Source of the DNA: a virus
Virus record (IMG/VR): IMGVR_UViG_3300017748_002932
Direction: 5' to 3' (one strand)
DNA length: 5,907 nt
The notes under the pieces are model-generated. The model had not been told where the DNA came from, did not search any database, and saw nothing but the letters and a program-made list of their open reading frames with translations. Position 1 is the stretch's first letter. Each line of letters starts with the position of its first letter. Of this stretch, positions 2,802 through 5,907 are shown piece after piece. Both the position numbers and the translations under genes were made by a program.

Positions 2802-4901
2802 TTATAGGTTAGGCATTAATTTAGCTGACATTTTTCTTCTAGCGTTATTTTTTACACTTATCTGACACCAAAAGTTCATACTATCCAATGATTTTTGTGC
2901 GAATATATTGTTGTATTTTGACGGATCTATATAAGTACTTAAATCTCCTATACCTTTATCTCCATCGTGGTCATATCTTCTGTTTAATGTCATAAACATT
3001 TCTTTGTTTTCATCTGCGAAGTTTCCTTTACACTTATTCACATTACTCATATAATTTACCCATGCTGGTTGTTTTCCTGCCGATGAATATTCATTATACC
3101 ATTCTCCTGTCTGTGTATCTATTTTACATACTGTATCAAACCATGCTAGTGTATCTGTTACTTTATCTTCAAATGCTATTTGACTTAGTTCAGGTTTATG
3201 AAAGTCATTCATTGTTTTATGATTCATGAAGAATTCATTTCCTTGTGAAAAGTCTAATCTTGGCGTTAGAGATACGATCCCAATTATATATGACGGCTCA
3301 TGTGTTTTTATCTTTATTCTTCCGCCTTTATGCTTCCCTGTTAATCTTCCTCTCCCTGCTAATGTTCCTAATGGCTGTTCTACTTGACTTTCTACATTTA
3401 ATGTATCAGTTGTTGATACTACCTCTTGAAATGCTAGTTCTTTAATTAAACTTCCATGGTATACAGGCGTTTCACATCCTTTTGCTCTTTCGTGTGTGTA
3501 TACTGCATCTAGCCAATCATCGTATGTTCCTCCACTTACTGCAATTCTATTTAGCATGTTATATATCTTTTGAGATAGATTTAATGCATCCATTTTAATC
3601 ACATCCTGTCCTTGACTATTTACATCCACTAATACTGCTGATACATCTGCTACACCTCCATCTCCTGTAATCCATTCTGTATCTAACCAATTATTATTTA
3701 GCCCTGATTGATAGCATTTTATTCCTAGTCCCTCTTGTGCTGCTTTACAGAACGCATCTTCATAGTCATCTGCTGGTACTCCGTTTACTGTATCTAACCC
3801 TAAATTGTATGGTTTTCTACTTTGATAATCCACTTCAAATGCGTTTGGACTTGCTACTGCTTCTAATATATCCTGTCGCATTAAGTCTATATCCTCCAAA
3901 TTAAATCTTTCTAATTCCGGCTCTCCCTCTCCTTGTGCAACTGTATTTTCTATTAAATTCTGTGGCGAGCTAAACACTAACGCACCTCCTGTTGGCATTC
4001 CACTAGACACTCCCGCAAATGTATATTGCTTAAAGTTTGCTGGTGATCCTGTTGGTGTTGTATCGGTTATTTGTGTAAATAATGTACTTGCTTGATATTC
4101 TGTTCCATCTATTTCTATTACTATGTCACTTGTATCTACATCTCCATATGGTGTTGTCGTTTGTGAGTTCCATGTTAATCCTATAGTTAACGCCATTGTT
4201 CCTCCTGTCAATATCGATGTATTATTTGTTGTTACATTATTTGCATGTATATTTCCTAAATCATTTCCATTTAAATACAAATCATTATAACTTACATTCC
4301 ATTTATTCCCAAATGAAGACTGGTGTATTACATATCCTACCGCTTTTCCATTCACTGATTCTTGTAAATTTGCGTAATACTGTCTATATATTGACCAATA
4401 TCCTAATAATGGCACCGCATTGAATAGCCTTTCTACATTACTTTTATTACTCTTTCCTCTCCCCAATCCATGAATTCCTAGATATGAGTATATAGAACTT
4501 GTATTTACTTGTGCATTTGCAGTTTTATCATTTTCATCCCAATATCCTACCATTCTCATTTGTGGTAGTTTAATTTTACTCATGTCCATCCCTACATTAA
4601 TCATATTCATATGTAGTTTTCCTTGAAATAATCGAATTGGTACTTCAAATACGTCTAATTGTACTTTATATGATCCAAATAGCGGTCCCAATGTTGGCAA
4701 TGTTTTAATATCACAATCTAAGTTTATGTCAAACGTATCCCCCGGCAATGCTAATTGATTCATGAACGGTACTAATGTCCCTGCTGCCATTGTTGTTCTC
4801 CATGTGTATGATAGATCGTGTGTACTTCTTGAGTAATTCTTTGCAGTTACTTCCATTTTTGAGCCCGAGCCGAGTCGTTCTCCTCCTAGTGTTGTCTTCA
4901 T
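2802..4901 (-). CDS. VP1: Major capsid protein VP1 (Microviridae F-protein family jelly-roll)
   Basis: 699-aa ORF starting at an ATG. N-terminal motifs are GGERLGSGSKM...RSTHDLS...TTMAAGTLVPF...LPGDTF. Further motifs are LLGYWSIYRQYYANLQE and KIYNMLNRIAVSGGTYDDWLDAVY, which are typical of microvirus VP1. The large size matches the Alpavirinae-type capsids. Confidence 0.92.
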   Translation of the reverse strand: MKTTLGGERLGSGSKMEVTAKNYSRSTHDLSYTWRTTMAAGTLVPFMNQLALPGDTFDINLDCDIKTLPTLGPLFGSYKVQLDVFEVPIRLFQGKLHMNMINVGMDMSKIKLPQMRMVGYWDENDKTANAQVNTSSIYSYLGIHGLGRGKSNKSNVERLFNAVPLLGYWSIYRQYYANLQESVNGKAVGYVIHQSSFGNKWNVSYNDLYLNGNDLGNIHANNVTTNNTSILTGGTMALTIGLTWNSQTTTPYGDVDTSDIVIEIDGTEYQASTLFTQITDTTPTGSPANFKQYTFAGVSSGMPTGGALVFSSPQNLIENTVAQGEGEPELERFNLEDIDLMRQDILEAVASPNAFEVDYQSRKPYNLGLDTVNGVPADDYEDAFCKAAQEGLGIKCYQSGLNNNWLDTEWITGDGGVADVSAVLVDVNSQGQDVIKMDALNLSQKIYNMLNRIAVSGGTYDDWLDAVYTHERAKGCETPVYHGSLIKELAFQEVVSTTDTLNVESQVEQPLGTLAGRGRLTGKHKGGRIKIKTHEPSYIIGIVSLTPRLDFSQGNEFFMNHKTMNDFHKPELSQIAFEDKVTDTLAWFDTVCKIDTQTGEWYNEYSSAGKQPAWVNYMSNVNKCKGNFADENKEMFMTLNRRYDHDGDKGIGDLSTYIDPSKYNNIFAQKSLDSMNFWCQISVKNNARRKMSAKLMPNL

Positions 4902-5230
4902 TAGTTTTTATTTTTTTTTGTTTTTAATGTTTCATTTATTTCTTCTGCAAATTTTTTATCCTTTGCGCTTATTTCATTTAATACCATTAATACTTGAATT
5001 ATTCTGTTCCATGTTATTGTCTTTAATTCATCTTCGCATTCTCCTCTATTATCATAATCTTCTGTCATTTTATACTCCCCCATCACTCCGAAGTGCTTAT
5101 TTTCTATTGTTATTACTGTGAATGGGCTATTTTCCACAGGATATCTCTCTATAATTTCGCTATTTAAAGAGCCGTTGTTGTTTGCTTTCTCTACATTCAT
5201 AGTGGTAGATTCTTTTGTTAATGTTTCCAT
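4901..5230 (-). CDS. Hypothetical 109-aa protein immediately upstream of VP1
   Basis: The ORF track starts this frame at 5239, but plus-strand bases 5237..5239 are caa, which is a TTG codon. The first ATG is at 5230..5228 (METLTKESTTMNVEK...), and I prefer it. The TAA stop (4903..4901) overlaps the VP1 ATG (4901..4899) as TAATG. Function is unknown. Confidence 0.6.
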   Translation of the reverse strand: METLTKESTTMNVEKANNNGSLNSEIIERYPVENSPFTVITIENKHFGVMGEYKMTEDYDNRGECEDELKTITWNRIIQVLMVLNEISAKDKKFAEEINETLKTKKNKN

Positions 5231-5372
5231 CTTTTTCAAAGTATTTATTTGTTTTGATTAATATATAGCGTCCACTCTGAACACTATTTTTCTTTATGAC
5301 CTCTGAAGTTTCTAGGTCTACGTATATGCTTTCTGTTCTCCATTGCTTTGTGTTTCTCAAATCTTTCTCCAT
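5160..5372 (-). CDS. Hypothetical 70-aa ORF overlapping both neighbouring ORFs in a different frame
   Basis: ATG start at 5372..5370. The sequence is non-repetitive and reads as beta-strand-like (WRTESIYVDLETSEVIKKNSVQSGRYILIKTNKYFEKDG). It overlaps the 87-aa ORF by 89 nt and the 109-aa ORF by 71 nt. Stop codons are frequent on the A-rich coding strand, so 70 open codons argue against chance. Coding status is still unproven. Confidence 0.45.
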   Translation of the reverse strand: MEKDLRNTKQWRTESIYVDLETSEVIKKNSVQSGRYILIKTNKYFEKDGNINKRIYHYECRESKQQRLFK

Positions 5373-5547
5373 CTTCTTCTCTATCCATTAAGTATTGTGT
5401 GAATTCACTTCTTTTTTTGGGTTTTCCGAATATTCCTGTTTCATCATCTTTCTTAAAGTCCTCCATTATTAACTTGAAGTCTATATATTTACTTATCCTC
5501 ATAACTATTTTTATAATTTTGAGAACGTATTTTACCACCTTTTTCAT
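5284..5547 (-). CDS. Hypothetical 87-aa protein with an amphipathic K-rich N-terminus and a strongly basic C-terminus
   Basis: ATG at 5547..5545 after an A-rich leader. The N-terminus is MKKVVKYVLKIIKIVMRISKYI and the C-terminus is RKHIRRPRNFRGHKEK. It is the first ORF after the 155-nt intergenic region. The basic tail recalls the small DNA-binding and packaging proteins of microviruses (phiX174 gpJ class), but only by composition. Confidence 0.55.
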   Translation of the reverse strand: MKKVVKYVLKIIKIVMRISKYIDFKLIMEDFKKDDETGIFGKPKKRSEFTQYLMDREEDGERFEKHKAMENRKHIRRPRNFRGHKEK

Positions 5548-5702: not shown

Positions 5703-5861
5703 CTACAATATTAATTTTAATTGTTTATCTATTTTATCTTTTTTTTCTATTACTTGTATCCAATTTCCTCCTTTATATGGTTCTATTACTACTTCTACTT
5801 GATTACCTTCGTATCTTATATATCTTACTGTCCCTTTATTTGTTTTTTCTCCTATCTTCAT
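5703..5861 (-). CDS. Hypothetical 52-aa ORF absent from the ORF track (below its length cut-off), interrupted by the linearisation point
   Basis: Manual translation from the ATG (5861..5859) to TAG (5705..5703) gives MKIGEKTNKGTVRYIRYEGNQVEVVIEPYKGGNWIQVIEKKDKIDKQLKLIL. It is on the same strand as all other genes and fills an otherwise empty stretch between the VP4 end and the 155-nt intergenic region. The composition is protein-like. Codons 1-26 lie in the terminal repeat. Confidence 0.5.
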   Translation of the reverse strand: MKIGEKTNKGTVRYIRYEGNQVEVVIEPYKGGNWIQVIEKKDKIDKQLKLIL

Positions 5862-5907
5862 AATTTCTTAAACATCAAGCGCGATTTATCGCAAGGATTG
5901 TAGCCAC
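5785..5907. repeat. Right copy of the exact 123-nt terminal direct repeat
   Basis: Identical to 1..123. It runs to the last base of the window. Confidence 0.95.

Follow-up and report, generated by a model that had tools for sequence, protein, structure and literature searches.

Evidence for three overlapping small genes tiled upstream of the capsid gene of an uncultured microvirus

In phiX174 (Bullavirinae), genes B and K lie within A/C, and gene E lies within D. To our knowledge, gene overlap in microviruses is textbook matter only for such phiX174-like phages, and the small overlapping genes of the uncultured diversity are mostly unannotated. The IMG/VR record IMGVR_UViG_3300017748_002932 raises the question of how three consecutive small open reading frames (ORFs), which occupy all three frames of one strand and share long stretches of their sequence, are to be read. 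We refer to the whole stretch of 5,907 nucleotides (nt) that was analyzed as the window, and to the three frames, in reading direction, as ORF-A, ORF-B, and ORF-C. Our comparison of this locus with its relatives indicates that A, B, and C are probably three separately initiated genes in the late operon of an uncultured microvirus, with the start of B within A and that of C within B, each time in the +1 frame of the upstream gene. The layout and the starts are conserved, purifying selection is apparent, and codon choice serves both frames; the locus would thus represent a well-supported new case of microvirus gene overlap. These data uphold the proposal of a first-pass annotation that the ORFs are genuine overlapping genes of the phiX174 type: the arrangement is kept in relatives, the frame of 70 amino acids (aa) is never interrupted, and the choice of codons tracks the residue encoded in the other frame.

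The features of the locus are the following:

5547..5284, minus strand: ORF-A, 87 aa, ATG start; the first gene past the non-coding region.
5284..5372, minus strand: A/B overlap, 89 nt; encodes A residues 59-87 (the basic tail) and B residues 1-29 (including the first predicted beta strand), with B in the +1 frame of A.
5372..5160, minus strand: ORF-B, 70 aa, ATG start; 160 of its 213 nt are common to A or C.
5231..5283, minus strand: single-coding centre of B, 53 nt; the sole stretch of B without overlap, and also the A-rich, G-poor leader of the C start.
5160..5230, minus strand: B/C overlap, 71 nt; encodes B residues 48-70 (third predicted strand and C-terminal motif) and C residues 1-24, with C in the +1 frame of B.
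5230..4901, minus strand: ORF-C, 109 aa from the ATG at 5230 or 112 aa from a TTG at 5239; its stop codon shares 1 nt with the capsid ATG.
2802..4901, minus strand: gene of the major capsid protein, 699 aa, matching Pfam Phage_F and phrog_514; directly downstream of ORF-C.

Our ORF listing agrees exactly with the three ORFs of 87, 70, and 109 aa and with the overlaps of 89 and 71 nt (80 nt with the TTG at 5239) from which the first-pass annotation had started. The start coordinates of A, B, and C are 0, 2, and 1 modulo 3, so that all three frames are in use. A accounts for 46% of the coding strand and stop trinucleotides for 8.1%. From the latter frequency, the probability of 70 open codons is 0.0027 per start, in line with the earlier rough estimate of less than 1 percent for such an A-rich strand. 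Within the capsid, pilot, and Rep genes, the longest of 69 alternative-frame ORFs that begin with ATG comprises 43 codons. When the 647-nt region was shuffled 5000 times, an ORF of at least 70 aa appeared in 0.7% of the shuffles, and all three frames were never obtained at once.

To place the locus among its relatives, we used about 55 distinct related microvirus contigs from IMG/VR, which were fetched with the capsid protein and then with the C and B profiles, together with additional related contigs from ENA, Logan, and GenBank. Hidden Markov models of A, B, and C were built from the first four genomes; among the about 55 related loci, they detected C in 55, B in 47, and A in some 18. Of the 45 genomes in which both B and C begin with ATG, 44 have the start of C within B; the two genes then share 65-107 nt, and C is invariably in the +1 frame relative to B. 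The ATG is conserved for B in 45/45 genomes, in each of which it lies no more than 18 codons from the upstream in-frame stop, and for C in 44/44. A long A/B overlap (74-104 nt), again with the downstream gene in the +1 frame of the upstream one, is present in 18 genomes. In the genomes without A, an unrelated gene is found upstream of B and overlaps it by 4-32 nt or not at all; there, B frequently possesses a charged N-terminal extension of its own. The 70-aa frame is uninterrupted in all relatives. A comparison of this kind had been suggested by the first-pass annotation, and it shows that the three ORFs and their +1/+1 tiling are kept. On the B+C tree, the genomes with A do not group as one clade, so that at least two changes are forced; since they form the deeper grade, the long A/B overlap has persisted over a large divergence.

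The GenBank record MG883728 possesses the same 71-nt B/C overlap as the window, as do three further contigs. As in the window, a C homolog is located upstream of the capsid gene of MG883728; it is annotated there as 'putative VP3' (41% identity over 72% of the length), and the overlapping B is unannotated and sits in the gap before this coding sequence. L003 (1671-2234) is the sole relative without a B/C overlap: B and C are in the same frame and 99 nt apart, an extra 47-aa ORF (1802-1945) overlaps the end of B, and the N-terminus of C is about 15 residues shorter. One ENA contig of 11,240 nt (L062) encodes a C protein with 94% identity; it has about twice the length of the genome, and its capsid and Rep genes are in pieces, for which reason it was excluded from the fine comparison. 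A concatemeric assembly with many indels is the probable explanation.

Substitution rates were derived from 15 independent sister pairs, with the single-coding part of C as the baseline. We had considered the capsid gene as a neutral baseline and dropped it because its codon identities indicate mosaic histories: sisters with about 97% identical B+C are only about 70-86% identical in synonymous capsid codons. A similar discrepancy is seen in the pairs L032/L033, L034/L037, L059/L060, and others, whose B+C regions are 94-97% identical and whose capsid codons for conserved residues are about 62-86% identical; this suggests that recombination took place between the capsid gene and the block of small genes, or that the two evolve at unequal rates. 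In the single-coding part of C, the ratio of nonsynonymous to synonymous differences (pN/pS) was 0.28 in the frame of the gene itself and 0.95 and 2.05 in the two alternative frames. Likewise, columns 30-48 of B in genomes without A gave 0.19 in the B frame and 2.84 in the -1 frame. The part of A that overlaps no other gene (pN/pS 0.45 from eight independent pairs) appears to be under purifying selection. Within the A/B overlap, the ratio was 0.25 in the B frame and 0.65 in the A frame. The B/C overlap gave 0.59 in the B frame, 0.68 in the C frame, and 0.54 in the third frame; since pooled pN/pS values (0.54-0.68) and position-wise identity cannot separate the frames of this overlap, site-specific codon choice has to be consulted.

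Synonymous sites in the B/C overlap are slow to change: the synonymous rate pS was 0.21 in the B frame and 0.18 in the C frame, compared to 0.385 in single-coding C. We assessed the excess of identical codons over the single-coding part of C by a Cochran-Mantel-Haenszel test stratified by pair and codon degeneracy. The single-coding control yielded z = 0.18, the B/C overlap z = 5.2 in the B frame and z = 4.4 in the C frame, and the A/B overlap z = 2.8 in the A frame and a non-significant z = 1.4 in the B frame. The synonymous-site constraint by which the first-pass annotation proposed to test the overlaps is present in the B/C overlap; for the A/B overlap, the global test on B does not reach significance, and the evidence is site-specific codon choice.

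This codon choice is conspicuous at individual positions. Leu68 of B is encoded by CTC in 17 of 20 genomes, a codon that accounts for 0.7% of the Leu codons in the single-coding genes of these phages, and its wobble base is the middle base of a conserved Ser codon of C. Asn50 of B is AAC in 20/22 cases, compared to 30% elsewhere, and the overlapping codon yields Thr3 of C. In the A/B overlap, Ser15, Tyr17, and Asp19 of B are read from AGC, TAC, and GAC in A-bearing genomes, which gives His, Arg, and Pro/Gln/His in A; in genomes without A, the codons are AGT, TAT, and GAT. The C:T counts at these wobble positions are 35:4 with A and 12:35 without it (pooled Fisher P of 1e-9, a value that, like the binomial ones, overstates independence because the genomes are phylogenetically related, and is descriptive only). 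A T at the wobble position of Ser15 or Tyr17 would not create a stop codon in A but would convert its His or Arg into Tyr or Cys. Where a T at a wobble site does create a stop in the A frame, it is found in 1 of 150 cases with A and in 29 of 179 in the same columns without A. At other wobble positions of these genomes, the bases change freely. Judged by these comparisons, the B/C overlap clearly appears to be dual-coding; in the A/B overlap, the B frame appears to dominate, with the A tail kept open and constrained at a few residues.

The starts of B and C bear on how the three frames would be expressed. The ATG of C always consists of positions 2-3-1 of a codon pair of the form 'NAT G..' in B (Asp/Asn-Gly/Glu, or Tyr-Glu/Gly; 44/44 genomes). 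In the window, the B start (5372) and the C start (5230) are embedded in the same octamer, AAGATGGA, which stems from two adjacent codons, GAT GGA (Asp-Gly), in the preceding gene. Both internal starts would thus use one device, an ATG that spans an xAT Gxx codon pair of the gene upstream. For C, the ATG at 5230 is conserved and the TTG at 5239 is not; since no start codon is present between the stop of B and the conserved core of C, C must initiate inside B. In front of both starts, the sequence is rich in A and poor in G and lacks a Shine-Dalgarno motif; in 44 genomes, the A content of the 25 nt before the C ATG is 52-76%, and G does not exceed 12%. Because of this composition, ribosomes would most likely load directly on the leaders, with independent initiation at the two ATGs. 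The leader of C coincides with the single-coding centre of B (5231-5283), which is as conserved at synonymous sites as the overlaps (z = 5.1) and in which codons ending in A are used almost exclusively; Lys is encoded by AAA in 68 of 70 cases, compared to 83% elsewhere. The simplest reading is that wobble positions of B build the leader from which C would be started; the synonymous conservation of this segment might also stem from a promoter or an RNA structure. B would be the older and dominant frame, with both of its ends overwritten: the A frame would run 29 codons past the B start and thereby gain an Arg/Lys-rich tail, and the C start, 24 codons before the B stop, would provide C with a disordered N-terminal arm.

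How much of the A/B overlap is functional deserves scrutiny. A, B, and C could be real genes and the 29-residue tail of A a tolerated read-through, with the overlap as the by-product of a lost stop codon. Such a view draws on the single-gene pattern of pairwise identity in the A/B overlap (0.75, 0.72, and 0.55 at B codon positions 1, 2, and 3), on the stratified synonymous test in the B frame, and on the free exchange of Arg and Gly in the tail, where wobble bases of the Arg type and of the Gly type stand in the same ratio as in genomes without A. However, 18 divergent genomes keep the A frame open for about 25-33 codons, a length in which each genome would be expected to contain 1.1-2 stops; the T-to-C switches at the B wobble sites of Ser15 and Tyr17 concern positions where a T makes no stop in A; the A-frame pN/pS of 0.65 compares to 2.0-2.8 in the same frame of single-coding sequence; and the overlap persists across a non-monophyletic set of genomes. 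We consider a merely tolerated tail unlikely. Nonetheless, several points weigh against the main reading of three separately initiated overlapping genes. Since synonymous sites of B within the A/B overlap are not significantly more constrained in the global test, the A tail is only weakly constrained, and its basic character seems to follow largely from conserved acidic codons of B. The P values for codon choice come from related genomes. In-frame N-terminal extensions in a few B homologs keep a fused form conceivable, and matches of named function were found neither for A, B, and C in Pfam or PHROGs, nor for B and C by Foldseek, nor for B by VIA-align. That the layout is altogether an artefact, be it a longer gene broken by assembly or sequencing indels or a 70-aa frame open by chance, has a negligible probability in our assessment. 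The region is A-rich with short homopolymers, and the near-identical contig L062 is visibly indel-ridden; yet the three-frame layout recurs in independent assemblies from many samples, the fused frame occurs in no relative, 70 open codons are improbable (P = 0.0027), and B is modelled with good confidence (see below).

Recoding is the other route by which the frames could be connected: a programmed +1 (or -2) ribosomal frameshift or transcriptional slippage would join A to B or B to C, with a fusion among the products. A helix or signal followed by the B domain does exist as a single ORF in four distant homologs (P0163, P0193, P0196, and P0094), in which a hydrophobic, amphipathic, or lipobox segment precedes the B domain in frame; a run of seven A is located just upstream of the B ATG in five relatives (L001, L008, L009, L010, and L052), and nine of the 18 A genes end in AAA-stop. 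Other A genes, in contrast, end in CCT, GAT, CTA, or CAA before the stop, whose position varies along with the terminal codons; among the 18 genomes, neither a slippery motif nor a stop context is conserved. The longest homopolymer in the overlaps of the window is a run of five A. Moreover, the ATGs of B and C are conserved throughout, B stands alone in almost all of the 418 sequence clusters of its family, which include no B-C fusion length, and all long forms of B keep a Met at the usual B start. We thus consider recoding at this locus quite unlikely. The specific slip advanced by the first-pass annotation, a +1 shift at AAA-TAG that yields an A-B fusion, found no support: no slippery site is conserved, B has its own ATG in 45/45 genomes, and the fusion would drop the conserved, confidently folded first strand of B. 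In a related scenario, which we regard as very unlikely, the A/B junction is a recoding site at which a +1 shift near the B start adds the membrane-seeking helix of A to the B domain, beside free A and free B. If true, soluble and membrane-tethered forms of one small domain would be obtained from 390 nt, and two frames would reproduce the single-ORF proteins of distant relatives that combine a signal or helix with the B domain. Three separately initiated genes remain our preferred reading, and their predicted products are described in the following on that basis.

B is conserved from an N-terminal WxTESxYVDxETGE block through a C-terminal ECKRSxQxRLF block. When its profile was run against 1.84 billion cluster representatives, 418 clusters were recovered at E ≤ 0.001; nearly all of them are 56-98 aa long, span the whole profile, and stop right after the C-terminal motif, and B-C fusion lengths were not seen among them. 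An AlphaFold2 model of B computed from 37 sequences reached a predicted local distance difference test score (pLDDT) of 87.3 (87 in round terms) and possesses strands at residues 10-19, 36-48, and 51-62 plus a short helix; B is hence predicted to be a compact three-strand beta sheet with a short helix. Since the confidently predicted strands span residues in both overlaps, the parts shared with A and with C would both be folded. A Foldseek search of B against the PDB returned nothing at E ≤ 0.001, and hhalign found no similarity to gokushovirus VP5. In a wide VIA-align search, the best hits were MucBP domains, with Z scores of only 4.8 and 4.5. Only B residues 8-31 of the B profile align with the repeat motif of a MucBP_2 adhesin; in P0051, a 2471-aa Gram-positive MucBP_2/Muc_B2 adhesin, the repeats match the YVDxETGExI strand-turn motif of B eight times (summed E = 6e-19). 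The MucBP models match none of 37 B members. We treat this resemblance as a lead only, which may reflect either a common short structural motif or a remote kinship with mucin-binding domains. L069 (GenBank MH616715, 1501-1872), P0193, and P0163 encode a lipoprotein-type signal (lipobox LTAC or LTGC) in frame ahead of the B start Met, by which the B domain of some phages may be exported or anchored in a membrane. Each of the extended homologs retains the usual start Met of B.

In the conserved core of C, the motifs DSPF and ITWNR and an FGxMGxYR block can be recognized, and a long C-terminal helix follows. AlphaFold2 gave a pLDDT of 73.8 for C as a whole and values below 50 for residues 1-24, which are exactly the portion read from the bases of B. 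C is accordingly predicted to consist of a disordered N-terminus, a small beta sheet with the DSPF motif, and a long helix after ITWNR. Its 42 database homologs are all unnamed, a search of the ESM Atlas led only to unnamed Phixviricota clusters, and Foldseek against the PDB found nothing at E ≤ 0.001. The VP3 label of the MG883728 homolog would make C the gokushovirus VP3 internal scaffold (Pfam Chlamy_scaf). This assignment is not supported: there was no Pfam match at E ≤ 0.1, and hhalign against VP3 of Chlamydia phage 2 (Chp2) gave a probability of 0.05%. There was no similarity to Chp2 VP5 by hhalign either.

A begins with an amphipathic helix rich in Lys and Ile. A YIDFK-type motif and a variable middle come next, and the C-terminus is the Arg/Lys-rich tail. 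A holin-like protein or single-gene lysis protein would be expected to possess a hydrophobic transmembrane segment; in 16 of 18 genomes, the helix of A is amphipathic and not hydrophobic, with a hydrophobic moment of 0.57-0.90 and a mean hydrophobicity of about 0.1-0.4; a hydrophobic, lipobox-like N-terminus is limited to L003 and L043 among the 18. The net charge of A ranges from +6 to +15 and is +11 in the window. At the position upstream of B, several relatives possess other small helix-bearing ORFs, sometimes beside peptidase-like genes. Because of its amphipathic helix and these helix-bearing ORFs, a lysis-related or membrane-active role is a reasonable guess for A. The alternative is a putative DNA-condensing role like that of J of phiX174, a very small, strongly basic DNA-packaging protein with a hydrophobic capsid-binding end that is encoded near the capsid gene. 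A of the window is basic and combines a basic tail with an amphipathic helix; at 87 aa, it is far longer than J, and the order of the parts is reversed. As a working guess, A would be a membrane-active or nucleic-acid-binding small basic protein, and B and C would be putative accessory proteins of assembly or replication.

The gene content upstream of B varies among the relatives. Directly upstream of B, L040 (2457-2892) and L042 (2417-2880) possess an ORF of about 100-118 aa with an HxH...D-type peptidase-like motif, followed by a hydrophobic ORF of 30 aa that overlaps the B ATG by 4 nt; this pair could possibly form a lysis cassette at the position held by A in the window. In L031 (2308-2827) and L065 (MH572526, 4489-4985), an ORF of 118-163 aa with a conserved His/Gly-Cys motif precedes the B/C block and is followed, just before the block, by an amphipathic-helix ORF of 42-47 aa that ends in a DxDGDG-like motif. 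Opposite the B/C overlap, the plus strand of the window contains a hydrophobic 47-aa ORF (5118-5261), and similar antisense ORFs occur in L001 and L002. Since long T-rich antisense ORFs are found all over the A-rich genome, this one is most likely a by-product.

The window itself is a closed circle of 5784 nt with a 123-nt terminal repeat (bases 1-123 recur at 5785-5907). Every gene is carried on the minus strand; in reading direction, the order is a 52-aa ORF, ORF-A, ORF-B, ORF-C, the 699-aa capsid gene, a 119-aa ORF, a 60-aa ORF, the pilot gene, and Rep. The region had no blastn match among 50,697 phage records. When 185,579 prokaryote genomes were scanned for prophages with the C profile, none turned up, and therefore no host clue was obtained.

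The overlaps of phiX174 resemble those described here in several respects: the viruses belong to the same order, the overlaps are on the same strand in other frames, a newer frame appears to overprint an older one, and the overprinted parts are small, basic, or disordered and are missed by gene callers. The overprinted genes of phiX174 are, however, fully embedded in much larger genes, whereas three genes of similar size are tiled end over end here, with 75% of the middle one dual-coding. Similarity of sequence or fold to a phiX174 protein was not found, with no search of A aimed at J, and the internal starts of the present locus lack Shine-Dalgarno motifs. Another precedent is provided by the spanin genes Rz/Rz1 of tailed phages, which are overlapped or embedded +1-frame pairs with Rz1 as the lipoprotein partner. 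The likeness consists in two small phage genes that overlap in +1 and in the Rz1-like lipobox signal carried by some relatives of B. Unlike the spanins, B of the window possesses no signal peptide and A no true transmembrane segment, and there is neither sequence similarity nor evidence for lysis. In the smallest microviruses, conserved long overlaps (OG6/OG11 of a roodoodoovirus and OG55/OG63 of a reekeekeevirus) were missed by Prodigal and PHANOTATE (PMC9865509). Like the present ones, they were recognized in uncultured microviruses through conservation and selection statistics, but they belong to a different lineage, concern unrelated proteins, and draw on read microdiversity (PMC9865509). 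The evidence at the A/B/C locus is comparative and consists of natural controls with and without overlap, along with codon choice.

If the three frames are genes, two or three real genes would be added to the annotation of this lineage. B is unannotated in the GenBank relatives examined, despite a family of more than 400 sequence clusters. The locus offers a natural experiment, in that the same B codons with and without the A overlap reveal wobble bases that are recruited by a second frame. It also illustrates how start signals without a Shine-Dalgarno motif may be built from the wobble positions of the upstream gene. The three products, and A especially, would be candidates for the lysis or DNA-packaging factors of such phages.

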